64,000 nt of DNA from Verrucomicrobiia bacterium (GTDB lineage: Bacteria > Verrucomicrobiota > Verrucomicrobiia > Limisphaerales > UBA8199). The DNA lies in the NCBI GenBank assembly GCA_035294005.1, contig DATGLT010000445.1:400-64399 (forward strand). The letters run 5' to 3'. Position numbers and translations under genes: made by a program. Of this stretch, positions 1-13,852 are shown piece after piece; within the stretch, counting starts at the first letter, position 1; the number at the start of each line of letters is the position of its first letter. The notes under the pieces are model-generated. The model made no database searches. It was not told where the DNA came from and worked only from the letters and a program-made list of their open reading frames with translations.

Positions 1-1421
1 AGTTTTAAGGTCCCCTGGGTGCTGCGCAACAGGATGTGATCCCATTGTGCCGCCTGGACCGCCGAGCCGAATTTCTCGATGCAACGGCCGCGAACGGCCG
101 CGCGCGTCGTCGAAGGCGGACACAAACTGTGCGCCTTTATCTCCGCCAAAGGGTAGGGCAGTTTAAAAGCGCCCTGGTCCATCAGACCGTAAAACAGGCC
201 CTGCTGTGGATCGAGGAGGTGATACGACAAATCAAGGCTTTGAAGCCACGGATCCTCTTCGGTGAGGCCTTCAGCCTGCCGGAATTGGTCGATCAGTTTG
301 AACTTGGCAGACCAATCCAGCCGGTCCGCTGTGCTGAGAGGATCGCGTTCGAGGTCGGCCAGGGCGGTTTCCCACGCATTCAAAAGGTGGAACCATTCTT
401 CGCCGACATTGGTGCAGAAGTCCCGCACGAGTTGGAGGTATTGCCTTTGGATCTCCAGCGCGGTGGTTTCTTTGCCGCCGCTGACCAGGCACCGCCATTT
501 CCAACTGCGATCGCGTGAAATGCTCTTAAGCGCTCCCAGTGGATCGACCAGTTCCGGCACGCGGCTCAGCGGGGCGCCGTTGAGCAATGCCTGCAGGACC
601 AGCGCGGTGGTCCCAATCTTCAGGTAAGTCGAATACAGCGACAGGTTCGAATCGCCCAGGATCACGTGGAACCGGCGATAGAACTGCCGGTCGGCGTGCG
701 GTTCATCCCTCGTGTTGATGATGGGCCGCCGCTGCATTGTATCAATGCTCTGCAGTTCGAAGAAGAAGTCGCTCCTCTGCGAGATTTGAAACCCCGGTTT
801 GAGATACTTATCCTCCTCTTCCCACCCGAACTTTCCCGCGCCGCAAAGGATTTGGCGCGTGACCAGGAACGACATGATGCCGTTGCTGAGCGATTCCCAC
901 GGCAACCGCCGCGGAAGGAGGTAATTCTCGTGGCAGCCGTAACTGTGACCGCAGAAGTCAGTGTTGTTTTTGTAAAGCAGAACCGGGTTATTGGACCCCT
1001 GGTTGAGATTGCGGGCGCAATCCATCAGCAGTTGGTCGCCGGAATAATCCTGCTGGAGATGCTCGAGCAGGGTCGTGCACTCGGGCGAGCTATACTCGGG
1101 ATGCGAATGGTCGTTGTACAGACGCGCGCCGTTTCGCAGAACCAAATCACTGTGAACGGCATCGGTTGAGAGGCGGCGCTGCGCGTCCTGAACGAAGTAA
1201 TTGGCTTCGTCATGGTCCTGCATCAGTTCTTTGACGCGAAAACCGCGAGCGTCACAATGGGGGTCTTCGCATCGGTAATCCCAGCGGCGGCGGACGCCGG
1301 GCGCGGTTGCGGCGCCGACCAGGGCAATCGCTTCGGCTACGACGTCAAGACCCTCGGCGCGTTCCCGGGTGATTCCAATCTCGGTTTCGGTGCCGAACTG
1401 AATATCCAGTGTTTCCTGCAT
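1..1421 (-). CDS. dop: Pup deamidase/depupylase Dop-like protein (PafA/Dop family), 3'-truncated by the window edge
   Basis: Translated by hand (absent from the ORF track because there is no stop inside the window): MQETLDIQFGTETEIGI...RRWDYRCEDPHCDARGF...NGARLYNDHSHPEYSSPEC...LYKNNTDFCGHSYGCHENYLL...RLHVILGDSNLSLYSTYLKIGTT...VQAAQWD. These match the GxExE, Dop-loop (WDY..E.P..DARGF), NGARxYxDHxHPEY, SYGxHENY and RLHVIxGD motifs. It starts 30 nt after the arc stop. Confidence 0.9.
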   Translation of the reverse strand, partial: MQETLDIQFGTETEIGITRERAEGLDVVAEAIALVGAATAPGVRRRWDYRCEDPHCDARGFRVKELMQDHDEANYFVQDAQRRLSTDAVHSDLVLRNGARLYNDHSHPEYSSPECTTLLEHLQQDYSGDQLLMDCARNLNQGSNNPVLLYKNNTDFCGHSYGCHENYLLPRRLPWESLSNGIMSFLVTRQILCGAGKFGWEEEDKYLKPGFQISQRSDFFFELQSIDTMQRRPIINTRDEPHADRQFYRRFHVILGDSNLSLYSTYLKIGTTALVLQALLNGAPLSRVPELVDPLGALKSISRDRSWKWRCLVSGGKETTALEIQRQYLQLVRDFCTNVGEEWFHLLNAWETALADLERDPLSTADRLDWSAKFKLIDQFRQAEGLTEEDPWLQSLDLSYHLLDPQQGLFYGLMDQGAFKLPYPLAEIKAHSLCPPSTTRAAVRGRCIEKFGSAVQAAQWDHILLRSTQGTLK

Positions 1422-1451
1422 GGCCTAAGGGGGTTAAGTGGCAGCCGAAGC

Positions 1452-3143
1452 TCAGACCGCGGCCGAAAAGGCGCCACGTTCGCCAGGGCGATAGGGCGAC
1501 AAACGCACCACATTGGAAGGATCGAAGTCGGTCAACTTCAACCAATCCTCGGTAATGTCACTTGGCGGGAACAGTTCGTTCTCGCGATATTCCTTAATCA
1601 GCGCGTCGATCAGGTCCTGGCGTGTTATGGGGGCCTCTCCCCGAATGCTGATGGATCGTTTGATAGCCGATTCCTTGGCCCTCTCGACAATTGCCGCGAT
1701 GATGGCTCCGCTTGCCAGGTCGCCGCGATACAGGTAATCGTGACGGCCGCTCCGGAACGTGATGTCGAGGAACCGATTCTCATCGGCATTCGCGTAGTGT
1801 GCTTCCACAATCGCGTCGATTAGGGCTTCCCGCGGTTCTTCGAGAGGCAGGTCGTCGACGAGGTAAATGCCGTAAATCTCCCGCGCGGCGCCCTTGTCCG
1901 GCCGTCGCACGCGGATTTTACGATCGATACGTCCGGGCCGAAGGATCGCCGGGTCGATTAGATCGGCGCGGTTGGATGCCAAAATAACCACGACATTTTG
2001 CAGCGGCTCGAGTCCGTCCATTTCGCTGCAAAACATCGGTACCAGCGTCGACAAAATGTTTGTGCCGGCCCTGATGGCGTGCCGGGTTCCCAGGATCGAC
2101 TCCGCCTCGTCAATGAACAAGAATGCCAGGTGGCCTTCGGCGGCCTTTTCACGGCATTGCACAAACAGGTCCCGGACCTGTCGTTCGGATTCTCCAAGCC
2201 ACATGTTTAGAATCTCGGGCCCCTTGACGCTGAGGAAATATTCAGGGCGATCTTCTCCGGTCTCCTGGAGTATTTGTTTGCGCAAGTTATGGGCGGTTGC
2301 CTTCCCCAGCAGCGTCTTGCCGCATCCCGGAGGGCCGTACAAGAGGAACCCCTTGGGCACCGGGTGGTGAAAACGCCGAAAGAGCGCCGCGTGCAGGAAA
2401 GGCAATTCGATGGAATCCCGTATTCCCTGCACCGCCTCCTGCTGGCCTCCGATTGCGCTCCACGGAATCGGCTCGACTTGGGTCAGCGTTCGATCCAACC
2501 GCTTGCTGGCGCCGATAATCTCCACGGCGACCCGCTGCTGGCTGTCCAGGCGGATGTCCAGGCCAACCTTGAGTTTGTCCTTCAACAACAAGGACGAGCG
2601 GACGACCACCGCGTCGGAGATCCCCGACTCGTTACCCACACGCAGACGGCCGTCAGCCATCACCTCGCTAATCCGGACGACGGGCCCATTCTTTTCAAAC
2701 CCAAACACATCCGTCACCGCAAAAGCTTCGTTCAGCAATACCCGTGTCCCGGTTTCCAGGGACGCTTCCGGCACGTTCGGGTCGAGATTGCACACATACT
2801 CGGTCCCGTTGACGCACACCAGGACACGGCCATTGGCCAAAGACTGCAACAGCGTCCCCAGGCGCAACGCCGGAGCCCGCAGTTTTTCCACTGCTTCATT
2901 CAATTTTTCCAACGCGGTTCGCGCCTGGTCCTGGAGTTCTTCCATTTCGGCAATGCGCGTCCGCAGCAAGGGCATGGAGGGAGCCGTCCCTTGCGTAGCC
3001 AATTCGAGTCGCACACGATCCAGCATCTGCAACGCTGAAACGTTTTCCGGAGATTCTGCCCAAGTGGGTTCCTGGGGTGATTGAGACTGAGGATCCGGCC
3101 CCGGACCGGAATGGTCTGGACGGCCTTTCTGTAAGTTACTCAC
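1452..3143 (-). CDS. arc: Proteasome-associated AAA+ ATPase ARC/Mpa-like
   Basis: N-terminal coiled coil followed by an OB-type interdomain; Walker A GPPGCGKT; pore loop VKGPEILNMWLGESE; Walker B FIDEAE; SRH SNRADLIDPAILRPGRID; Mpa-like SGAIIAAIVERAK and ENE.FP...EDW. Start placed at GTG 3143 instead of the ORF-track start 3428 because of the promoter position. Confidence 0.88.
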   Translation of the reverse strand: MSNLQKGRPDHSGPGPDPQSQSPQEPTWAESPENVSALQMLDRVRLELATQGTAPSMPLLRTRIAEMEELQDQARTALEKLNEAVEKLRAPALRLGTLLQSLANGRVLVCVNGTEYVCNLDPNVPEASLETGTRVLLNEAFAVTDVFGFEKNGPVVRISEVMADGRLRVGNESGISDAVVVRSSLLLKDKLKVGLDIRLDSQQRVAVEIIGASKRLDRTLTQVEPIPWSAIGGQQEAVQGIRDSIELPFLHAALFRRFHHPVPKGFLLYGPPGCGKTLLGKATAHNLRKQILQETGEDRPEYFLSVKGPEILNMWLGESERQVRDLFVQCREKAAEGHLAFLFIDEAESILGTRHAIRAGTNILSTLVPMFCSEMDGLEPLQNVVVILASNRADLIDPAILRPGRIDRKIRVRRPDKGAAREIYGIYLVDDLPLEEPREALIDAIVEAHYANADENRFLDITFRSGRHDYLYRGDLASGAIIAAIVERAKESAIKRSISIRGEAPITRQDLIDALIKEYRENELFPPSDITEDWLKLTDFDPSNVVRLSPYRPGERGAFSAAV

Positions 3144-3149
3144 ATGCTC

Positions 3150-3177
3150 ATTATAAGGCTCCTCCGCATTCGTGCAA
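3150..3177 (-). promoter_or_regulatory. sigma70-like promoter for arc (TTGCAC-16-TATAAT, 6 nt before GTG; leaderless)
   Basis: Minus strand reads gatTTGCACgaatgcggaggagcctTATAATgagcatGTG. Confidence 0.6.
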
Positions 3178-3414
3178 ATCGGGGTTTCTGCGGAGTCCCC
3201 GGCTCCGTGTTTTTGCTCGGAGGAGCGCCCTGCACCACAACCTGCTGGGAAGCGCGGGCCTTCAACAGAATCAACGCTACGAGTCCGTTGGAAATAGGGT
3301 GAGTATCTTTGGAGAATAGGCACAGAAAGCCGAGCTTGCGGGGAGCAGACCTCCCCTGCCTGAAGAACACAATTTTTAAATCTTGGCCGCGTTGCGCGGT
3401 CAACGCGCTGATGA

Positions 3415-3987
3415 CTATTTACCGGCACCGTTCTGAACAGGCTCCAGCGTAACGTCAGTCAGTTTTTCCCGAGCCGGTTCGAGCCGGACGATCATGTGAT
3501 AGATCCGGCCGGATTCCAGGGTGAACGTCATCCCGAGCGAGTCATAGCTGATGGACTCGGTCCCGCCTCGGAGTTTTTCGCTCGAAGTCGGCTCCCCGTA
3601 CGCCTTGATCAAATCTTCACGAGTCGATTTGAGCCCGATACCCTCTTTGGTACGCCCATTGAACCTGTTGACCAGGGGTCCGTTGATGCCGGTCACATCT
3701 CCGCACATGACAACCTGGACGATGCCGTCCTTGTCAGGCATGACGGCGAAACCGAGTGGAGTGTATTCGATGGCGTTTGCCGTTCGCCGGTTTGGCTCGC
3801 CGAATTGTTGAATAACATCGCGAGCGCTCATTCCGGCGTGGATCCTGCCGACGGCGACCCGCGGCTCGATTAGGATTGGAGTGTCACTGGCAGCCGACTG
3901 TGGCTGGTCGGTTCGCGAACAGCCGCCGCCGAGAACAATCGCTGCGGCCACAACGAGCAACAATCCATGTTTGCTGCCACGTCTCAC
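3415..3987 (-). CDS. Lipoprotein with two internal repeats (SmpA/BLIP-like G..G.S..D....GEP units)
   Basis: Lipobox LGGGC; repeats GRIHAGMSARDVIQQFGEP...IEYTPLGF and GIGLKSTREDLIKAYGEP...ISYDSLGM. Confidence 0.65.
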   Translation of the reverse strand: MRRGSKHGLLLVVAAAIVLGGGCSRTDQPQSAASDTPILIEPRVAVGRIHAGMSARDVIQQFGEPNRRTANAIEYTPLGFAVMPDKDGIVQVVMCGDVTGINGPLVNRFNGRTKEGIGLKSTREDLIKAYGEPTSSEKLRGGTESISYDSLGMTFTLESGRIYHMIVRLEPAREKLTDVTLEPVQNGAGK

Positions 3988-3993
3988 AAAGTG

Positions 3994-4021
3994 AGTATAT
4001 CTGATTTTGCGATTAGATCAA
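3994..4021 (-). promoter_or_regulatory. sigma70-like promoter (TTGATC-16-TATACT, 6 nt before GTG 3987)
   Basis: Minus strand reads TTGATCtaatcgcaaaatcagaTATACTcactttGTG. Confidence 0.55.
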
Positions 4022-4023
4022 GA

Positions 4024-4779
4024 TTAGACCGAGGAAACTACCGGTTCGGCAGTCCTGGCAGGGGAGACCGCGGGCGTGTCCCGATGCCTCTGGCCGAGGA
4101 AATGAATCAGGCTCTCGAAAATCAGTCGTCCGTCCGCCGAGCCAAGGATAGGTTCGCTGGCGCGCTCCGGGTGAGGCATAAGCCCCGCCACGTTGCGGGC
4201 TTCATTGCAAATCCCCGCGATACTGGACACGGATCCGTTGGGATTGGCTTGCTCAGTGCAGTCGCTCTGGGCATTAGCATATTGCCAAAGGATCTGGTCA
4301 TTGTCGCGCAAACGCGTCAATGTCGGTTCATCGGCAAAATAACAGCCTTCCCCATGGGCTATGGGAATGCGCATCAGCTTTCCGGTGGGGATTTTGCACG
4401 TGAAAGGCGACTGCTGGGTAACGGTCTTGAGATAGACCTGTTCGCAGCGGAATTGCAGGGAGCGGTTGCGAATCAAAGCTCCGGGCAGCAAGCCCGCTTC
4501 GCATAGAATTTGAAATCCATTGCAAATCCCGAGAACCAGTCCGCCGTTTTGAACGAAGCTTTGAACCGCTCCCATGACCGGGCTGAACCGGGCAATGGCG
4601 CCGGTGCGCAGATAATCGCCATAGCTGAACCCGCCGGGAATGATTACCGCATCGGCATCCGCCAGTGAGCTTTCCTTGTGCCACAGCAGCCGTGCAGAAT
4701 GGCCCATGACGTTGCGCAAAACGTGGACGACGTCCTGGTCGCAGTTGGACCCGGGAAACTGCAAAACCGAGAAATTCAT
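4024..4779 (-). CDS. purQ: Phosphoribosylformylglycinamidine synthase subunit PurQ
   Basis: FPGSNCD, PGGFSYGDYLR, GICNGFQIL (catalytic Cys), PIAHGEG, GLMPHPER. Confidence 0.97.
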   Translation of the reverse strand: MNFSVLQFPGSNCDQDVVHVLRNVMGHSARLLWHKESSLADADAVIIPGGFSYGDYLRTGAIARFSPVMGAVQSFVQNGGLVLGICNGFQILCEAGLLPGALIRNRSLQFRCEQVYLKTVTQQSPFTCKIPTGKLMRIPIAHGEGCYFADEPTLTRLRDNDQILWQYANAQSDCTEQANPNGSVSSIAGICNEARNVAGLMPHPERASEPILGSADGRLIFESLIHFLGQRHRDTPAVSPARTAEPVVSSV

Positions 4780-4801
4780 ACGCGGTCAGCCTACGCTGTT
4801 C

Positions 4802-5047
4802 CTATTCGATTTCAAACCGGTAATCTTCAATAACCGGGTTGCTCAGGATTTTGTGGCAAGCCTCGTCAATTTGTTTGCGAGCCCCTTCGCGATCGGCTCC
4901 GGTAACTTCAATTTCGAGGTATTTGCCGACATGGACGGAACCCAGGCCTGAATACCCCATGTGCGCAAGGGCGCTTTGGACAGTCTTACCTTGAGGGTCA
5001 AGCACAGCCTTCTTCGGCGTAATGATGATCTTTGCTTTCATAAACAA
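4802..5047 (-). CDS. purS: Phosphoribosylformylglycinamidine synthase subunit PurS
   Basis: VLDPQGK, VGKYLEI and LSNPVIEDY motifs; 81 aa; directly upstream of purQ. Confidence 0.95.
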   Translation of the reverse strand: MFMKAKIIITPKKAVLDPQGKTVQSALAHMGYSGLGSVHVGKYLEIEVTGADREGARKQIDEACHKILSNPVIEDYRFEIE

Positions 5048-5160
5048 GCGCTCCGGGGAACGTGAACACTGCCACCCGGCAAGTCCACGGAATCAGCCGC
5101 GGCGTCGCCATAAATTTCACGCAACTGTGAGACAACGCCACCCCGGACGCCAGTCAATTC

Positions 5161-5580
5161 CTACCGCGCTTCGCGCACCCGGATTGTGTACCGTTGCGCT
5201 TTATCATTAGCAGACGAGAAGCTCACGTCCTGTTGCGCGTTTTCGTCCAAAAACACGTTTTGAAACGGAGTATCCTCAACCGCGAAGCCTTGAGCGTCTT
5301 TGAAGACGCAATTGACCTGGATTTGGATGCGACGGTCTTCACGGTTCCTGAGATTGGCATGAACCTGGAGCCGGCCATCAGGCAATCGTGCTTCTTGAAG
5401 GCTGCCGCAGGTGACCGAATATTGGGCTCTCTGGTTGAGGAGCACGAATTTGGAATTGTCCTCGAGGTTATTGACGCTGCCGTTTTGAGCGACGTAAGCG
5501 CCAGTATCGTGTGTCGCACAGCCGGGCAGGAGGCCCAGCGCAAGGGCAACGATGCCTGAATTCAATAGGCGAATATTCAT
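5161..5580 (-). CDS. YcfL-like (DUF1425) lipoprotein
   Basis: Lipobox LPGC; NLRN...IQVNCVFKDAQGF pattern; lies downstream of the LpoB-like and TPR lipoprotein genes. Confidence 0.65.
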   Translation of the reverse strand: MNIRLLNSGIVALALGLLPGCATHDTGAYVAQNGSVNNLEDNSKFVLLNQRAQYSVTCGSLQEARLPDGRLQVHANLRNREDRRIQIQVNCVFKDAQGFAVEDTPFQNVFLDENAQQDVSFSSANDKAQRYTIRVREAR

Positions 5581-6767
5581 ATGGTTTGTGGGGTTAAGGC
5601 TTGATCGCTGATGAAAATGACTTTGTCCTTTGCGTCCTGCGGGACTTCAACCGTGATGGTCTTCGTCAACGCAGGCACAACTTGCCCGCGGTTGTCTCGG
5701 AATTCGCAGGTTATGACGTGCCGACCAACCGGCAGAGTGAAAGTGGCCAGTCCAAGATAGCGCGGCAGGTTGTCCCAGGAGCGGACATCTGCTTCGGGAG
5801 TGGTGGCGGCCGAGAAGATTTTGCTGATCACACCGGCGGCGAGCAACCCGGCGCCCACTTCGTTGGCGGTGGCGTCATGCCCGTTGCCGGAAAGGATTGC
5901 TGCGCCGCCGCCGATAAGCGCGACATTGCCGGCGATGTCCGTGGCGTTCTTGAAGATCGCTTTGTTTCCGAGAATGTGGTCCATGACGCGGCCACCACGC
6001 GTGGTCGCCTGGTACCACACGTCATCATCTATGGACACGCGGTATTCGTTTCCATTAACCCGCAACTGCGCCGACCTAACAGGAGAGGGATCGACATGGA
6101 AGCGCAGTTCCTGGCGGTATTCGCCGGTGGCGTACTTAGTTGGTCCCGGACCGAACTCCAAAAAGGCGATCACATTGGCTTTGCAATCATACGCCTGTAA
6201 GCCGCCCGCTTTGCAGTTGAGTTGCGCGCGTTTAAGCGCATCGGTTCCATCTCCGCCGAGTTTCGCTGTGGCCAGTCCGTCCAGGTAGTCGGGCAAAACC
6301 CAATCTCCGGCGTACTCGTGATTTTCGGCGTCCCCGTCTTCGATTTCAGCACTGCGAAAGCACGCGCGCGCGTTGTCCCGCTCGCCATCCATCCAATAAA
6401 GAATGCCACGGTAAATGTAGGCCATGGACCGCTCGTATGGCTCGCCAATGAATGTCTTCTTTGCCTCGGAATGGAAATAGCCGCGCGCCTTTTTGGCGCC
6501 CGGATCTGGGCCGTACACTCCTTGCAAGGTCGTCAGGGCGTCATCCAGGTAACGCTTCGCCAAATCGAATTTGCCCTGCCGCATGGCGGCCGCGGCGGTG
6601 CGATATTCCCAAAGAACTTTATCCCGGGGCGGTCCGTGTTCAATCGCGGTCGGACCATCCACCATAATGTTGCCGGTTAAAACAACCGGATGCTCCGGCG
6701 GCCGCGTCGCGCACGAACTCACCAAAAGCGGGATGATTGCGGCAAAAATGCCACAGACAGCTTTCAT
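5577..6767 (-). CDS. TPR-containing lipoprotein (COG3014-like)
   Basis: Lipobox VSSC; helical repeat with FIGEPYERSM; C-terminal ADVRSWDNLP motif; stop overlaps the next gene. Confidence 0.6.
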   Translation of the reverse strand: MKAVCGIFAAIIPLLVSSCATRPPEHPVVLTGNIMVDGPTAIEHGPPRDKVLWEYRTAAAAMRQGKFDLAKRYLDDALTTLQGVYGPDPGAKKARGYFHSEAKKTFIGEPYERSMAYIYRGILYWMDGERDNARACFRSAEIEDGDAENHEYAGDWVLPDYLDGLATAKLGGDGTDALKRAQLNCKAGGLQAYDCKANVIAFLEFGPGPTKYATGEYRQELRFHVDPSPVRSAQLRVNGNEYRVSIDDDVWYQATTRGGRVMDHILGNKAIFKNATDIAGNVALIGGGAAILSGNGHDATANEVGAGLLAAGVISKIFSAATTPEADVRSWDNLPRYLGLATFTLPVGRHVITCEFRDNRGQVVPALTKTITVEVPQDAKDKVIFISDQALTPQTI

Positions 6768-6789
6768 CGGTTGAACTGGGCGTGCGGCT

Positions 6790-7425
6790 CTACCGGTACG
6801 CGGCGTCTTCCAGGCCCTGTTTCTTTATTTCCGCCGAATCTTCCCAAACGATGTCGCTGCTGCGCGCATCCGTGAGCCGGAAGGTGTAAAGAATGTAGTC
6901 ACTGGTGCCGGCGCCGGTCCGGGTGGTCAGACCCGAGAGCTTGCCCGTCAGGAAAAAATCAGCGCCCTTGAACTCGACCACGTTCGGATCCGCGCTGGCA
7001 GTAACCTGGCCCGCAAGTTTCATTTGACGTTCATGTTCGAGGGTGGCCATGCGTTCGCGGTCCAGAAAAATGACCTTGCCGCGAGCTTTGGAGTTTAATT
7101 CCGCCCGGATGCGGGAAAGAAAAATGTCCTTGTTGATCGGGAACCGGGTCGCGTTTTCGACCGGGTCCAGAACTATGCGGGGGGCGCCCTGGGCATTCGC
7201 GATCTGAGGAACGGTCAGCATGCTTTTCCACATTTTATCGGTCACTGCCACAAGGTCCTGTGATTCGACACCTGTGCCGGCGACAAAGCCCTGTTCGTCG
7301 GGGCGCATTTGAGTGACCGCAACGCCGGATGGGTTGCGGACACCGGAGGAAGCACAACCACAGAGCATCCCGGCCGCCACCGAAACAGTGGCAGCGCCAA
7401 ATATCGGCTTGAGTAAGGACTTCAT
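6790..7425 (-). CDS. Penicillin-binding protein activator LpoB-like lipoprotein
   Basis: Lipobox LCGC after MKSLLKP (start moved to 7425); GVESQDL..VTDKM..SML, VENAT, GADFFLTGKL and DIVWED resemble the LpoB/CsgG-like family. Confidence 0.65.
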   Translation of the reverse strand: MKSLLKPIFGAATVSVAAGMLCGCASSGVRNPSGVAVTQMRPDEQGFVAGTGVESQDLVAVTDKMWKSMLTVPQIANAQGAPRIVLDPVENATRFPINKDIFLSRIRAELNSKARGKVIFLDRERMATLEHERQMKLAGQVTASADPNVVEFKGADFFLTGKLSGLTTRTGAGTSDYILYTFRLTDARSSDIVWEDSAEIKKQGLEDAAYR

Positions 7426-7703
7426 AAAATCATTTGGTTTCTTGTAATTAGCTCGTTCTAACCGTTCGAATCCATTGGACGACTGAAGGGGTCGATTATT
7501 CGTTGCGCACGAACCCGGCTCGCCGCCGGGCGCCATTCGCAATCGACTGCAAAACGACGCGGCCCATCGCGTGGATTGGGCATTTCGCGTGCCAACAGAT
7601 CCGCGCGCATTATATCGATAAAGCCGCGCCCAGGCGCAACGGAATTGTCGAACCTCTGGAAGATGTTGATTCTGCCGTATTAAAACAGTTCCATGTGCGT
7701 GAA

Positions 7704-8495
7704 ATGATCGCCAAACGCGTCATCCCTTGCCTGGATGTCCATGCGGGACAGGTCACACGCGGTGTCCAGTTCGGAAAGGCTGAAGCCGGAGAATTGCGCA
7801 ACGTGGGGGATCCCGTGGAATTGGCGCTGCGGTATAATGAACAGGGCGCCGATGAAATGGTATTTTTCGACATCACCGCGAGCGCGCACGGGCGCGCGAC
7901 CATGGTGAGCGTCATCGAGCGCGCCGCCGAGCAATGTTTCATGCCTCTCACAGTGGGGGGCGGCCTTCGTTCCGTGGACGACATGTACACCATGCTCCGG
8001 GCCGGCGCGGACAAAATCAGCATCAACTCCTCGGCGCTGGCCAACCCGGCACTTATCCGAGCGGGTGCCGAAAAGTTCGGCAGCCAGTGCATTGTCGTGT
8101 CAATTGACGCAAAGAAAGTCGCCCCGGAACGATGGGAGGTTTTTTCTCATGGCGGGCGCAAGCCGACCGGGCTTGAAGCGGTGGCCTGGGCGCAGAAAGC
8201 CGTTTCGCTAGGCGCGGGTGAAATCGTGCTCAACAGCATAGACGCCGATGGGACCAAGGGCGGGTTCGACCTGGCAATCACCCGGAGGGTCAGCGAGGCA
8301 GTAGGTGTGCCCGTCGTTGCCAGCGGGGGCGCCGGCAAACTCGAGCATATGGCCGAAGTGCTTCTGGAAGGAAAAGCTGATGCCGTTTTGGCGGCGAGCA
8401 TCTTTCATTTCGGCGAATACTCGGTTGGCGATGTCAAAAATTACCTGGCTTCCAGAGGGATTCCCGTGAGGTTGACTCAGGAAATTGGAAATTGA
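7704..8495 (+). CDS. hisF: Imidazole glycerol phosphate synthase cyclase subunit
   Basis: [60 protein letters not shown]. Confidence 0.97.
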
Positions 8496-8670
8496 GTTCA
8501 ACGCGTCGGAGGCGTTTTGGGACGGCACTGGGGCCTTAGCGCGCCTCCATTGCCAATGATAAGTTCGCAACAATCCTTGTCCGTAACCCGCGGTTGATGC
8601 CGATCTTTTCAGGTTTTTCCTAGTCGGCTGCTCGAAATTTGTTAGATTGCCCCAAGCACTGCAGGCGGCT

Positions 8671-9060
8671 ATGACATTTTTCGAACAGCTGAAATTTGAC
8701 GGTAACGGGCTGATCCCCGCGATCATCCAGGATGTGCAGACCAAGCGCGTCCTGATGATGGCCTGGATGAACCGCGCCTCCCTGGAAACCACGCTCAAGA
8801 CAGGCAAAACGCACTTTTGGAGCCGGTCGCGCCAGAAGTTCTGGATGAAAGGCGAGACCAGCGGTCACACACAGACGGTCAAAGATGTGGCGTTTGATTG
8901 TGACGGTGACACCCTGCTGATCCAGGTTGAACAAACCGGGGCGGCCTGCCATGAAGGTTATCGATCCTGCTTTTACCGGTCCGTCGAGTCTCAAGGCCAA
9001 TCGTTTAAACTGACGGAGGAGCGACTTCAGAATCCCGAGGCGATTTACGGCAAGAAGTGA
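8671..9060 (+). CDS. hisI: Phosphoribosyl-AMP cyclohydrolase
   Basis: [44 protein letters not shown]. Confidence 0.96.
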
Positions 9061-9638
9061 TGGATGATTTCGTTGCATTCGGGAGCCGGACGTACGGAGA
9101 GGTTTTTCTGTTGCTGCTGGTGGCGCGGGGAATGGATTTCCTGAGCACCTGGATAGCGACTCCGAACATGGTTTTGGAGGGCAATCCCCTGGCAAAAAAG
9201 CTGGGGTGGCGCTGGGGCATCCCGATCAACTTCCTGATGTGTTTCGGGTTCGCCTTTTGGCCCTTGCCGGCCATTGTGATTAGCACGACCAGCGTGTTGG
9301 TTGCCGCCAGAAATTTTCAATCGGCATGGCTGATGCGCTCGCTGGGCGAGCAGAACTACCGTGAATGGCACGTCGAACGGGTTCAGGAAACAAACATTAC
9401 GCTGTACCTGTTTTGTCTTTTCGGTCAAACACTCCTGACGGGCGGAGTGGGAGCCGGGGTCATCCTGGCCACAAACAGCCATCAGAAAGACGAGCCCGTC
9501 GCCCTTGCGATAGGACTTGGCATTATTGCATATGCCCTGGCGGTTACTTTTTTCACGCTGCTGGGGATAATACGGCTGCGCCGGGCGGATAAACGCGAGG
9601 ATGCGCGCAAGTTCATTGGGCAGCCGATACCGAGGTGA
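9057..9638 (+). CDS. Membrane protein, DUF5658-like (D..ST...E.NP motif)
   Basis: Several hydrophobic segments; [18 protein letters not shown]; overlaps the hisI stop. Confidence 0.55.
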
Positions 9639-9683
9639 TGTAGCCGCGGGGAAAAGGGTCGCGTAATCACAACCTCCACTCAG

Positions 9684-11225
9684 ATGGATATCTACTACCC
9701 CAAGCTCCAGGATTTTCTGGAATTGGCCGACAAAGGGAACCTGGTGCCGGTCACTCGCCGGCTGTTGGCGGATATCGAGACGCCGCTCTCGGCCTACCGG
9801 AAGATTCGAGGACCCGCCGATTCATTCCTCTTCGAATCCGTTGAGGGCGGCGAACACCTGGGGCGCTATTCGTTTGTGGGATGCAACCCGCGCTCGGTCA
9901 TTCGCCAGACGGCGGACCGCGTGGAAGTCCTGGAGAACGGGCGCGTGGTAGAGACGGCGATCGTAAGCCGGGCCGGCGAGTCGGATCGTGCCACCGTCAG
10001 GGACGGCCTCGAAGTCGTCGAACGAGTGATGAAGAAATACCGGCCGGTGCCGTTGCCTGGATTGCCGCGATTTACCGGCGGCGCAGTCGGGTTTATCGGA
10101 TACGAGTTTATTCATGATGTTGAACCGATCGTCCCCAGGCCTCCAACCGACGAACTCGGGACGCCGGTGATGTATTTTCTCATCGCAGACCAGTTGATGA
10201 TTTTTGATCGCGTGTCGCAAACTCTGACGGTGCTGGTAAACGCCGTTCTAGATGACGCGGCCAATCCGGAAGAGGCCTACGAAAACGCTGTGGCCGAGAT
10301 AGAACGGCTCGTTGCCTTGCTCGAACAGCCAACTGAACACACACCCGTCAGTATCCCCTCAGAACCGCCCGCCATTTCATTTGACTCGAACGTTCCGAAG
10401 GAAAAATTCCTGGCAAACGTTGAGAAAGCCAAGGAATACATCGTTGCCGGCGACATCATCCAGGTGGTTGGGTCGCAAAGATTCTCAAAACCGGTTTCAG
10501 CCACTCCCGTGGATATTTACCGCGCCGCCCGATCGATAAACCCCTCGCCGTACATGTTCCTGCTGGAATTGGCGGGCTTTTCACTCGTGGGCGCCTCGCC
10601 TGAGATCCACGTGCGGTGCGAAGACAACGAAGTTGAGATCCGCCCCATTGCCGGCACGCGGCGGCGTGGCGCAACAGGACAGGAAGACCAGGCTCTCGAA
10701 AAGGAGTTGCTGGCCGATCCCAAAGAACGCGCGGAGCACGTCATGCTGGTGGACCTGGCGCGAAACGACCTGGGCAGGGTCTGCGATTTCGGATCCGTTG
10801 AAGTTAAGGACCTGATGGTCATTGAACGCTACAGCCACGTGATGCACATCGTTTCACAGGTGCGCGGGCGCCTGTCGCAAGGCCGAACGCCTTACGATTT
10901 AATGCGCGCGACATTCCCTGCCGGAACTCTCAGCGGGGCGCCGAAGATCCGCGCGATGCAAATCATCTCAGAACTGGAACAAACGGCGCGCGGCCCTTAT
11001 GGGGGTTGCGTCGGGTATTTCTCTTTTAATGGCAACCTGGATTGTTGCATTACCATTCGCACCGCTTTATTGAAAGAGGGAAAGGCGTACGTTCAGGCCG
11101 GCGGTGGATGGGTCACAGACTCGACCCCGGAGGGAGAGTACCAGGAAACGGTGAACAAGGCGCAGGCCATGCTCAAGGCTGTGGCCATCGCCCAGGGGTT
11201 TTCACAAAACCATGCGTCTTCCTGA
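9684..11225 (+). CDS. trpE: Anthranilate synthase component I
   Basis: ADIETPLSAY, FLFESVEGGEHLGRYS, NPSPYMF, GASPE, RPIAGTRRRG, KERAEHVMLVDLARNDLG, FPAGTLSGAPKIRAM. Confidence 0.93.
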   Translation: MDIYYPKLQDFLELADKGNLVPVTRRLLADIETPLSAYRKIRGPADSFLFESVEGGEHLGRYSFVGCNPRSVIRQTADRVEVLENGRVVETAIVSRAGESDRATVRDGLEVVERVMKKYRPVPLPGLPRFTGGAVGFIGYEFIHDVEPIVPRPPTDELGTPVMYFLIADQLMIFDRVSQTLTVLVNAVLDDAANPEEAYENAVAEIERLVALLEQPTEHTPVSIPSEPPAISFDSNVPKEKFLANVEKAKEYIVAGDIIQVVGSQRFSKPVSATPVDIYRAARSINPSPYMFLLELAGFSLVGASPEIHVRCEDNEVEIRPIAGTRRRGATGQEDQALEKELLADPKERAEHVMLVDLARNDLGRVCDFGSVEVKDLMVIERYSHVMHIVSQVRGRLSQGRTPYDLMRATFPAGTLSGAPKIRAMQIISELEQTARGPYGGCVGYFSFNGNLDCCITIRTALLKEGKAYVQAGGGWVTDSTPEGEYQETVNKAQAMLKAVAIAQGFSQNHASS

Positions 11226-11278
11226 ACCGGAGTTCCGGTTCGGACTGAGCCTTATTTGCCTCGAAAAAGGAAAAGCCC

Positions 11279-13852
11279 ATGAACGGGAACGCTGGTGCCG
11301 CGCGTGAAAACCTGCCGATTTACGAGATCGAGAGCGCCGTTATCTCCAGTGTTCGAGAGCACGGCCGCGTTATCATCTCAGCTCCCACTGGTTCGGGAAA
11401 ATCGACGCAAGTTCCCCAAATGCTCCTCCGGGACGGGTTGCTCGGGAACGGCCAGGTAGTCGTGCTCCAGCCGCGGCGGCTGGCCACCCGATTGCTCGCG
11501 GCTCGAGTCGCCTGGGAACGCAACGGCGAGCTTGGCCGCGAAGTCGGGTACCAGATTCGGTTCGAGAACGTCACCAGTGCCCAAACGCGCATTCGCTTTG
11601 TCACCGAAGGAGTGCTTTTGCGACAGATGGTTCAGGACCCCAGCCTGACTGGGATTTCCGCGTTGATCTTCGATGAATTTCACGAGAGGCACCTCTACGG
11701 TGACATCACCCTGGCGCGCGCGCTGGATTTGCAGGAATCGACCCGGCCGGACCTCAAAATTCTGGTGATGTCGGCCACCCTCGATGCCGGAAGATTGGAA
11801 GACTATTTGAAGCCGTGCCGGGTCCTTGAATCTCACGGAAGAACGTATCCAGTCGAAATCCGGTTCGCGGCCTCCCCCGGTTACATGGACAAACGACCGG
11901 TCTGGGTTCAGGCTGCCGAAGCGTTCAGCGACTTCGTTCAATCGGGTGGGACCGGCGACGTCCTGGTTTTCATGCCCGGAAGCTTTGAAATTTCCCAAAC
12001 GATTCAAGCAATCCAGCACTGCGAGGAATCGAGAGGCTTCATTCTCCTGCCGCTTCATGGAGAGCTTCCGCCGGGCGAGCAGGACGCCGCCGTGGCGCGG
12101 TACGAAAAGCGAAAGGTTGTGGTCGCGACAAATGTCGCCGAGACATCGCTGACCATTGACGGGATTCGATGCGTGATCGACAGCGGCCTGGCCCGGATAC
12201 CGCGATACGATCCCCAACGAGGCATCAACACGTTGCTGGTAGACAAAATCAGCCGGGCTTCTGCCGACCAACGGTCTGGCCGGGCCGGACGAACCGCGGC
12301 GGGGGTTTGCCTGCGGCTTTGGTCTCAAGAAGAGCACGGGTTCCGCCCTGCCCAGGAATTGCCGGAGGTCAAGCGGCTCGATCTTGCCGAGGTGGTGCTC
12401 ACACTCAAGGCGGCCGGTATCGAGGACCTGCGAAAATTCCGCTGGCTCGATCCGCCTGAAGAACAGGCCCTGGCTCACGCGGAGGAATTGCTCACAGACC
12501 TTGGGGCGCTCAAAGGGACCTCCGGTTCGGCAGCCGCTGCGATTACCGAGACCGGCCGCAAAATGCTGGCCTTTCCGTTGCACCCGCGATACGCGCGGAT
12601 GCTCTTGGCCGCCCAGCAATACCATTGCGTGCACCAGGCGTGCCTCGTTGCCGCTTTGACTCAGGGCCGCGACCTGCTGCTGCGCAACGTCGATCGCGAC
12701 ACAGCGCGTTACCGCGAGGATTTGCTCGGCGACAAGGCCCCCAGTGATTTTTGGATGCTCATGCGTGCCTATAATTACGCCGCGCGACACCAGTTCAGAA
12801 TGGACGCCTGCCGCCGCCTCGGCGTGCACATGACGACCGCCCGGCAGGTCGGACCGTTATTTCAGCAATTCCTCGACATTGCAAAACGCGAAGGCCTGGA
12901 CACCTCCTCGGCTTCGGTTCCCGACGAAGCGTTGCAAAAATGCATTCTCATCGGGTTCAGCGACCGGGTGGCACGGCGCGTCGACGGCGGGACGCTGCGA
13001 TGCGACCTGGTGCATGGACGGCGGGGACTGCTCGCAAGGGAAAGCGCGGTGCAAAACAGCGGGCTCCTGGTCGTCGCAGAAATCCGTGAAGTTGAAGGAA
13101 AAGACAAGACCGTGAATACATTGCTAAGCCTGGCTACGGCGATTGAGGAGCCGTGGCTACGCGAACTGTTTCCGGAAGACATCTCTTCCGGCTTGAAAGT
13201 CTTTTACGATGAGACCAGCAAGCGCGTTTTTGCCCAGGAACAGCTCAAATTTCGGGACCTGGCTATTGGCGACCGAAGAGTCGAGCCGCCGCCCGCCGAG
13301 CCGGCAGCCCAACTCCTGAGCCATGAGGTTGTGGCCGGGCGCCTCGTCCTGAAAGAGTGGGATCACTCGGTCGACCAGTGGATCCTTCGGTTGAACTTGT
13401 TAAGCCAGTGGTGCCCGGAGTTCGAGCTGCCGGCTATAGGCGAGGCGGACCGACGTCACCTGATTGAACAACTTTGCCACGGAGCTTTCAGTTACAAGGA
13501 TATTAAGGAAAAGCCGGTGAAGCCCTTGATTAAGAGCTGGCTCAGCGCGGCCCAATCCGAATGGTTGGACACCCACGCCCCGGAACGGCTGGCCCTCGGC
13601 AATGGACGAACGCCCAAGGTTAGCTACGAGTCGGGGGCGGCCCCGCACATTGCGGTGCGGATTCAGGAGATTTTCGATGTGACTTCCACGCCGAAAATCG
13701 CTTTGGGGCGCGTGACGGTGGTTGTCCATATCCTTGCTCCAAACATGCGCCCGGTCCAAATCACGCAAGACCTGGCCGGGTTTTGGCGCGATCACTATCC
13801 CCGCATCAAACAGGAGCTGCAACGCAGGTATCCCAAACACCAATGGAAGTAA
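11279..13852 (+). CDS. hrpB: ATP-dependent RNA helicase HrpB
   Basis: APTGSGKSTQVP, DEFHER, MSATLD, ATNVAETSLTIDG, QRSGRAGR; C-terminal LAPNMRPVQITQDLAGFW...YPKHQW typical of HrpB. Confidence 0.95.
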   Translation: MNGNAGAARENLPIYEIESAVISSVREHGRVIISAPTGSGKSTQVPQMLLRDGLLGNGQVVVLQPRRLATRLLAARVAWERNGELGREVGYQIRFENVTSAQTRIRFVTEGVLLRQMVQDPSLTGISALIFDEFHERHLYGDITLARALDLQESTRPDLKILVMSATLDAGRLEDYLKPCRVLESHGRTYPVEIRFAASPGYMDKRPVWVQAAEAFSDFVQSGGTGDVLVFMPGSFEISQTIQAIQHCEESRGFILLPLHGELPPGEQDAAVARYEKRKVVVATNVAETSLTIDGIRCVIDSGLARIPRYDPQRGINTLLVDKISRASADQRSGRAGRTAAGVCLRLWSQEEHGFRPAQELPEVKRLDLAEVVLTLKAAGIEDLRKFRWLDPPEEQALAHAEELLTDLGALKGTSGSAAAAITETGRKMLAFPLHPRYARMLLAAQQYHCVHQACLVAALTQGRDLLLRNVDRDTARYREDLLGDKAPSDFWMLMRAYNYAARHQFRMDACRRLGVHMTTARQVGPLFQQFLDIAKREGLDTSSASVPDEALQKCILIGFSDRVARRVDGGTLRCDLVHGRRGLLARESAVQNSGLLVVAEIREVEGKDKTVNTLLSLATAIEEPWLRELFPEDISSGLKVFYDETSKRVFAQEQLKFRDLAIGDRRVEPPPAEPAAQLLSHEVVAGRLVLKEWDHSVDQWILRLNLLSQWCPEFELPAIGEADRRHLIEQLCHGAFSYKDIKEKPVKPLIKSWLSAAQSEWLDTHAPERLALGNGRTPKVSYESGAAPHIAVRIQEIFDVTSTPKIALGRVTVVVHILAPNMRPVQITQDLAGFWRDHYPRIKQELQRRYPKHQWK

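Follow-up and report, generated by a model that had tools for sequence, protein, structure and literature searches.

The 64,000-nucleotide stretch studied here, which we call the window (positions 400-64399 of contig C445, assembly G000), very probably holds at its left edge the first two genes of a complete UBact-proteasome operon, arc-dop-ubact-prcB-prcA-pafA, coding for an ATPase of the ARC/Mpa type, a Dop-type enzyme, the ubiquitin-like modifier UBact, the two 20S proteasome subunits and a second, PafA-like member of the Pup ligase family. The system is of a known kind that has already been described and catalogued, and its gene content suggests one more complete, apparently functional example. 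The host is an uncultured soil bacterium of the Limisphaerales (Verrucomicrobiota), a diderm represented by a metagenome-assembled genome (MAG).

An earlier note on the same DNA had recognized a gene for an ARC/Mpa ATPase with a Dop gene following 30 nt on, and had expected the modifier, the 20S subunits and a ligase to lie just beyond the left edge. The gene pair and its spacing were confirmed, and all of the expected partners were found, in the 399 bases of C445 that lie to the left of the window (locus L004) and on the 4.7-kb contig C76 (locus L005), the ligase by virtue of a putative function. The identity, order, continuity and conservation of these genes and the presence of the catalytic motifs are documented in the following.

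Gene order and continuity across the assembly gap

The arc/mpa gene occupies positions 1452..3143 of the window on the reverse strand (563 aa, GTG start at 3143) and was assigned with Pfam, NCBIfam and an alignment to Mpa structures. A spacer of exactly 30 nt (1422-1451) separates it from dop, located at 1..1421 on the same strand and identified by PF03136, TIGR03688 and an alignment to structure 4B0R. The Dop protein has 518 aa in full, with residues 1-473 encoded inside the window and the last 45 codons and the stop at L004 264-399 (C445:264-399), left of the window. As the reading frame remains open at its 3' end, with no stop inside the window, dop is absent from a list of closed open reading frames (ORFs); its absence from the ORF track, which the earlier note had pointed out, is therefore real, but an edge effect. 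Between dop and prcB lies ubact (55 aa, L004 104-271, reverse strand), whose ATG overlaps the dop stop by 8 nt, and the ATG of prcB in turn overlaps the ubact stop by 4 nt, as ATGA. The first 35 codons of prcB (L004 1-107, reverse strand) are cut by the contig end, and the remainder of the gene is found on contig C76, at L005 2-613 on the forward strand. It is followed there by prcA (L005 606-1319, forward strand), with an overlap of 8 nt, and after a spacer of 24 nt by the pafA-like gene (L005 1344-2690, forward strand, 448 aa). The six genes leave little room between them: the overlaps, read from the stops and starts in the sequence, measure 8, 4 and 8 nt, and the spacers 30 and 24 nt.

A search for an exact overlap between the ends of C445 and C76 yielded none. 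The relative whose Dop is closest (90% identity; DASRFK010000037, locus L015) has the series purQ-lipoprotein-arc-dop-ubact-prcB-prcA-pafA intact, and in comparison to its PrcB the window genome is without residues 36-50, equivalent to 15 codons. Three Logan contigs of 783, 550 and 439 nt, originating from three runs labelled mine metagenome (X2, X3 and X4), each cover the left ends of both C445 and C76 with an identity of 99% or more, and all three place exactly 42 nt between the contig ends, inside prcB. Together with the partial codons CA and G these 42 nt make up 15 codons, in frame. Because the three bridging contigs restore the reading frame, the operon is continuous and the break is an artefact of assembly. 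The mine runs bridge the gap at this high identity, and the same or a near-identical strain is therefore present in soil and mine samples. The case also carries a lesson for annotation, as a complete operon may pass for a fragment when a window edge and an assembly gap of 42 nt cut through it.

The modifier belongs to the UBact family

The product of ubact, MPDRIQKPHLPPSSPGGGEGPSAPKVEKPSTEELLKRMRKVDPDQARRYRQRTGQ, consists of 55 aa and ends in ...RRYRQRTGQ, in line with the hallmark that we used for UBact, a protein of about 50-70 aa with the C-terminal signature R-x-x-R-x-R-T-G-[E/Q]. With NF033388, 'ubiquitin-like protein UBact', it reaches 79.9 bits against a cut-off of 35, and with PF20513 it reaches 83.8 bits against one of 27.8; the Pfam search returned no match to Pup (PF05639) at E<=0.01. 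The tagging system that the earlier note had described as of the Pup/UBact type is accordingly one with UBact, and the Pup half of that description falls away. The C-terminal signature, with Q or E, recurs in the loci of about 40 relatives, and most of these UBact proteins end in Q.

The protein is basic, with an isoelectric point (pI) of 10.26, 12 Lys and Arg versus 7 Asp and Glu, and a pI of 10.8 for its C-terminal half. The small ORF that had been anticipated was to have 50-70 aa, to be acidic and to end in GGE/GGQ or TGE/TGQ; size and the TGQ end hold, but with a pI of 10.3 the acidic character does not. Note that Pro and Gly are abundant in the N-terminal half and that the modifier has five lysines of its own, in contrast to the acidic Pup.

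The Dop-type enzyme and its PafA-like paralogue

The dop product matches the Pup_ligase family PF03136 with 476 bits in Pfam. The earlier note had proposed to run models of Dop against those of PafA, and this comparison came out in favor of Dop, with 425 bits for TIGR03688 versus 322 bits for the PafA model TIGR03686, so that Dop is the best-scoring model by about 100 bits, at a score below its equivalog cut-off of 492.3 bits. The alignment with Acidothermus cellulolyticus Dop (4B0R) runs from residue 9 to 465 and includes the Dop loop (RWDYRCEDPHCDARGF versus RWDFEEENPLRDARGF), whereas PafA structures align to the protein only from residue 90 on. As criterion for this loop we used a stretch of some 40 residues located between the catalytic aspartate and the ExE motif near the N-terminus. 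The loop is aligned with that of 4B0R residue for residue, with RWDY..DARGF conserved, and the motif WDY..E.P..DARGF cited in the earlier note is literally present. From the start of the GxExE motif to the catalytic Asp we count 95 residues in the dop product, compared with 89 for A. cellulolyticus Dop and 62 for the PafA-like paralogue. Next to the catalytic Asp the protein reads NDHSHPEYSSPE, the Dop pattern D-H-x-H-P-E-Y-S-x-P without insertion (PMC7947786, Table 1), and at the alpha-loop positions it matches the Dop consensus only in part.

In a search of the whole genome the only other Pup_ligase gene was the one on contig C76. Its product is without the Dop loop: residue 54 aligns with residue 50 of PafA, the alignment with Corynebacterium glutamicum PafA reaches the C-terminal ..DPF, and the alignment with Dop structures begins only past the Dop loop. 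We built a tree of 124 family members, consisting of representatives and three solved structures, and in this quick tree, anchored on the PafA side by a single solved structure (4B0T), there is one strong split with a support of 98 in the Shimodaira-Hasegawa-like approximate likelihood ratio test (SH-aLRT). The PafA-like paralogue groups with C. glutamicum PafA 4B0T, and the Dop-like protein is found on the opposite side with the solved Dops 4B0R and 9CKU. When the verrucomicrobial paralogues were forced into one clade, the log-likelihood dropped by 312.6, and the approximately unbiased (AU) test on a 52-row subset with the LG+G4 model gave p-AU 1.6e-24, a p-value that is weakened by the fact that the group in the test was named after the first tree had been seen. 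A lineage-specific duplication as the origin of the two Pup_ligase paralogues is rejected by this test. Each intact locus has both paralogues. Since the C76 paralogue is loop-less and grouped with PafA in the tree, and since a common clade with the Dop-like protein is rejected, we infer that it acts as the ligase.

The ARC ATPase and the 20S subunits

The ARC frame extends at its maximum over 1452-3428 on the reverse strand and contains the Pfam domains Prot_ATP_ID_OB_N, Prot_ATP_ID_OB_C and AAA, within an architecture of an N-terminal coiled coil, two OB domains, an AAA module and a C-terminal region resembling a beta-grasp fold. The best NCBIfam match is TIGR03689, proteasome ATPase, with 424.8 bits, short of the equivalog cut-off of 504.75. 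Residues 61-558 align with the structures of Mycobacterium tuberculosis Mpa (7LJF, 7PX9 and 5KWA; E 3e-98, i.e. about 1e-98), and the Walker A motif GPPGCGKT, the Walker B motif FLFIDE and the pore loop MWLG are all aligned with their counterparts in Mpa. In the aligned upstream frames the column of the GTG codon at 3143 holds V (GTG) or M (ATG) in all 28 relatives, and it is here that similarity starts. As this start column is common to the relatives and similarity begins there, the gene is taken to extend from 1452 to 3143.

PrcB begins with MTGDF... and has a propeptide ending in LEA, followed by Thr1 in TTVFAF, all encoded on C445. Contig C76 starts inside the gene with AGHTIFSDRTEKILELD..., a segment that contains Lys33 (TEKI). 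The protein matches TIGR03690, at a score below the equivalog cut-off, and PF00227 (Proteasome), and in the whole-genome search it was the single match to the latter family; an HslV-type subunit was not detected in the 96%-complete assembly. PrcA is divergent, with 62 bits on TIGR03691 versus a cut-off of 139, and does not match PF00227. When a profile of 24 orthologues was compared with the Protein Data Bank, the only entries retrieved were 20S alpha subunits from Rhodococcus and Mycobacterium, with E values between 1e-14 and 7e-13. One lysine is invariant in PrcA (K49 in alignment A1); its aligned counterpart in the alpha subunit from Rhodococcus is the Lys of an HKV motif, and it may correspond to the lysine of the activator pocket.

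A conserved promoter close to the arc start codon

Upstream of arc, a promoter scan located a sigma-70-like promoter of the operon at 3150..3178 on the reverse strand, with TTTGCA at 3178-3173, a 17-nt spacer and TATAAT at 3155-3150, matching the consensus in 10 of 12 positions. The -10 hexamer TATAAT ends 6 nt before the start codon of arc, so that the arc mRNA would be leaderless or nearly so. Both elements are conserved at this spacing: counted from the aligned start codon, TTGC at -33..-36 is kept in 24 of 27 distinct upstream regions of relatives, and TAnnnT starting at -11..-13 likewise in 24 of the 27. The distance between promoter and start codon is held whether the relatives start with GTG or ATG, the promoter recurring at this position in front of arc in L015-L049. 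This suggests that the arc mRNA is leaderless and that transcription starts at the start codon itself. The six genes probably share one transcript from this conserved promoter.

Proposed mechanism and alternative readings

The actinobacterial Pup-proteasome offers by homology a scheme for the enzymatic steps, the roles of the two paralogues and the docking of ARC to the 20S core. UBact would be made with a C-terminal Gln, which the Dop-type enzyme would deamidate to Glu, probably also stripping the tag from substrates. The loop-less PafA-type paralogue would then use ATP to phosphorylate the gamma-carboxylate of the terminal Glu and ligate it to lysine side chains of the target. Hexameric ARC/Mpa would bind the tag via its N-terminal coiled coils, unfold the substrate and hand it over to the PrcAB 20S core for degradation.

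A number of findings weigh against this scheme. In the full-text literature that we searched there was no experiment on any UBact system, so that conjugation and degradation are putative. ARC, Dop, the PafA-like protein, PrcB and PrcA all remain below their NCBIfam equivalog cut-offs, which are fitted to actinobacterial members. The codon for PrcB Asp17 is located in the 42 nt absent from the assembly, and the residue is seen only in the relative L015. The tail of ARC (window 1452-1500, reverse strand) reads ...GAFSAAV, without a GQYL or HbYX motif. For the PafA-like paralogue the models are non-discriminating, with 263.8 bits for Dop versus 248.9 for PafA (cut-off 551.3), as are the solved structures with 187 bits (Dop) versus 178 bits (PafA). 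The PafA signature that we tested, an actinobacterial consensus (PMC7947786, Table 1), comprises an insertion after the catalytic Asp (L-D-V-G-S) and an alpha-loop H..WEG.SSA..RS. Near the catalytic Asp the paralogue reads IDMGHLEYCTPE (IDMGHLEY), without the one-residue insertion of PafA, and its alpha-loop, FILNDCFEWIQHN, agrees with neither of the two consensus sequences, PafA or Dop, in that table.

The unusual ARC tail leads to an alternative that we regard as rather unlikely, namely that tagging is real, but that ARC does not dock on the 20S core in the fashion of Mpa, tagging then being mainly regulatory, or delivery relying on some other contact. The missing HbYX/GQYL tail speaks for it, and the 28 ARC C-termini that we compared, 27 from verrucomicrobial relatives and the one of the window genome, without exception end in V or I preceded by a residue that is small or aliphatic (AAV, GTI, NMI, AIV and others); a penultimate aromatic residue such as the Tyr of GQYL occurs in none of the 28. 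The aliphatic tail is thus a conserved trait of the clade and not a defect of the gene in the window. Against this alternative, arc shares its operon with prcB and prcA in a conserved arrangement, the last residue of ARC is always hydrophobic after a variable linker, giving the appearance of a conserved docking tail of another kind, and the aligned invariant lysine of PrcA would also fit a contact between the two.

Less probable still is that the two Pup-ligase paralogues split their work differently from those in Actinobacteria, for example with the Dop-like enzyme both activating and ligating UBact-Q and the PafA-like protein otherwise employed. The equal scores of the latter on both models and the lack of PafA-specific residues near the catalytic Asp and in the alpha-loop would fit such an arrangement, and hydrolase and ligase are set apart by few changes (PMC7947786). 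On the other hand, the paralogue has no Dop loop and sits on the PafA side of the tree, both genes are retained at every intact locus, and the prevalence of UBacts ending in Q implies that a deamidase is needed besides a ligase.

That all of the closest solved structures are actinobacterial could be taken to indicate a recently transferred actinobacterial system with a true Pup, a reading refuted by the family assignments and to which we give next to no credence: the modifier matches UBact and not Pup, ends in TGQ and not GGQ and is basic, the enzymes all fall short of the actinobacterial equivalog cut-offs, and the locus, with its conserved synteny and promoter, is common to many Verrucomicrobiota and shows no compositional anomaly. 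Nor do we give any appreciable weight to a decayed or truncated remnant with a broken prcB and scattered genes, since this picture of a cut prcB, an operon on two contigs and ends without shared sequence is a property of the assembly that the bridging contigs refute, three independent ones joining the ends with 42 nt in frame, and all ORFs are open with their catalytic motifs present.

Host and genomic setting

The nearest relatives of the window genome are MAGs labelled Verrucomicrobiota, Verrucomicrobiia and Limisphaerales, with a few bins labelled otherwise, and the Verrucomicrobia-like origin proposed in the earlier note is borne out. GC content is flat across the locus (0.54-0.60), and the neighbors of the operon are purQ, purS, a group of LpoB, DUF1425 and tetratricopeptide repeat (TPR) lipoproteins, hisF and hisI. 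In view of the flat base composition and the housekeeping neighbors the locus is part of the ordinary chromosome. Note that the lipoprotein genes form a succession of three at 5161-7542 of the window on the reverse strand, coding for a DUF1425 (YcfL-like) protein, a TPR protein and an LpoB-like activator of peptidoglycan synthase; they adjoin purS/purQ and have no connection with the proteasome operon. A scan of window positions 1-12000 with Rfam gave no match, and a scan for terminators returned 5 sites versus 4.5 expected from shuffled sequence, so that we do not claim a terminator.

Distribution among relatives

As evidenced by searches with the Dop model, the locus is present in 11 of 41 genomes, the window genome and its 40 nearest relatives, and among 301 genomes sampled from across the phylum the UBact model detected it in 10, corresponding to 7 of 149 genera. 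The distribution is patchy, and the locus is far from unique.

Some members of the collection merit separate mention. Five contigs, L018, L021, L031, L037 and L039, are labelled Limnocylindrales, Gemmataceae, Methylomirabilota, Saccharimonadales and Haliangiales, respectively, and encode a Dop that is 56-81% identical to the one in the window. A UBact of verrucomicrobial type is found in L018, L021 and L039, a pattern search in L037 retrieved no UBact ORF, and L031 is truncated. For these oddly labelled contigs we suspect mis-binning as a more likely cause than transfer. Two genomes from the host's family hold a different pair of adjacent Pup_ligase-family genes (G015:C36:25540-28586 and G023:C136:20721-23691), with long open frames of 556-823 aa and lower scores on the Dop model, of 200-276 bits; these pairs may form a Pup-ligase module of a further type, one that has no canonical Dop. 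In L045 (4268-7559, on a 1-Mb contig) both arc and dop are broken up into frames that overlap, with the neighboring genes intact, and we suspect errors in the assembly consensus rather than real pseudogenes.

Relation to known systems and significance

UBact and its gene cluster in Gram-negative phyla were named by Lehmann, Udasin, Livneh and Ciechanover in 2017 (BBRC 483:946, as cited in PMC12751074). Verrucomicrobia are among the reported phyla, and the operon described here has the same six genes in the same order as the cluster Mpa-Dop-UBact-PrcB-PrcA-PafA, with a modifier that scores above both curated cut-offs and ends in R-T-G-Q. Nothing essential differs, and the copy at the window is merely split by an assembly gap. 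Earlier, Iyer, Burroughs and Aravind (2008, PMC2588565) had reported Pup-like modifiers, two PafA paralogues and adjacent proteasome genes in Verrucomicrobia, e.g. in Methylacidiphilum. Those verrucomicrobial systems likewise have a small modifier ending in G-[EQ] beside two PafA paralogues and three proteasome genes; the authors took the modifier as an orthologue of Pup, and the membrane-linked, proteasome-less variant in planctomycetes and deltaproteobacteria differs from the present locus. The earlier note had called the system under-described, which holds for its biochemistry, given the outcome of our literature search, but not for its genomics, with curated Pfam and NCBIfam models at hand and reports from 2008 and 2017.

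With the actinobacterial Pup-proteasome of Mycobacterium, Acidothermus and Corynebacterium (4B0R, 4B0T, 4BJR, 7PX9, 3MI0) the operon shares homologous enzymes with conserved catalytic motifs, an ARC of OB-OB-AAA architecture, a beta subunit with propeptide and Thr1, and a tag that ends in Gln and would need deamidation. It differs in that the tag is of the UBact family, with TGQ in place of GGQ and a basic pI of 10.3, in that ARC is without the C-terminal GQYL, in that the PafA-like protein of the window genome is without both the insertion that follows the catalytic Asp and the alpha-loop residues of PafA, and in that the host is a diderm. Three traits, the ARC tail, the apparently leaderless promoter and the atypical PafA residues, go beyond the textbook system; they are clade-wide in the verrucomicrobial relatives compared, and the classification as a UBact-proteasome operon is unchanged by them.

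In Actinobacteria the alpha-loop of PafA selects the substrates. As a tentative proposal, which we consider possible but rather less than probable, the link between the unfoldase and the 20S core in UBact systems may differ from that in mycobacteria, with GQYL replaced by a conserved short aliphatic tail and a ligase paralogue without the PafA alpha-loop, such that docking, gate opening and the choice of targets would follow rules of their own, in combination with a seemingly leaderless arc mRNA behind a promoter whose spacing is conserved to the single nucleotide. The roughly 40 verrucomicrobial loci yield three testable departures from the mycobacterial model, in the ARC tail, the PafA signature residues and the predicted leaderless arc promoter. 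The presence of proteasomes and ubiquitin-like tagging in diderm bacteria bears on the evolution of regulated proteolysis.

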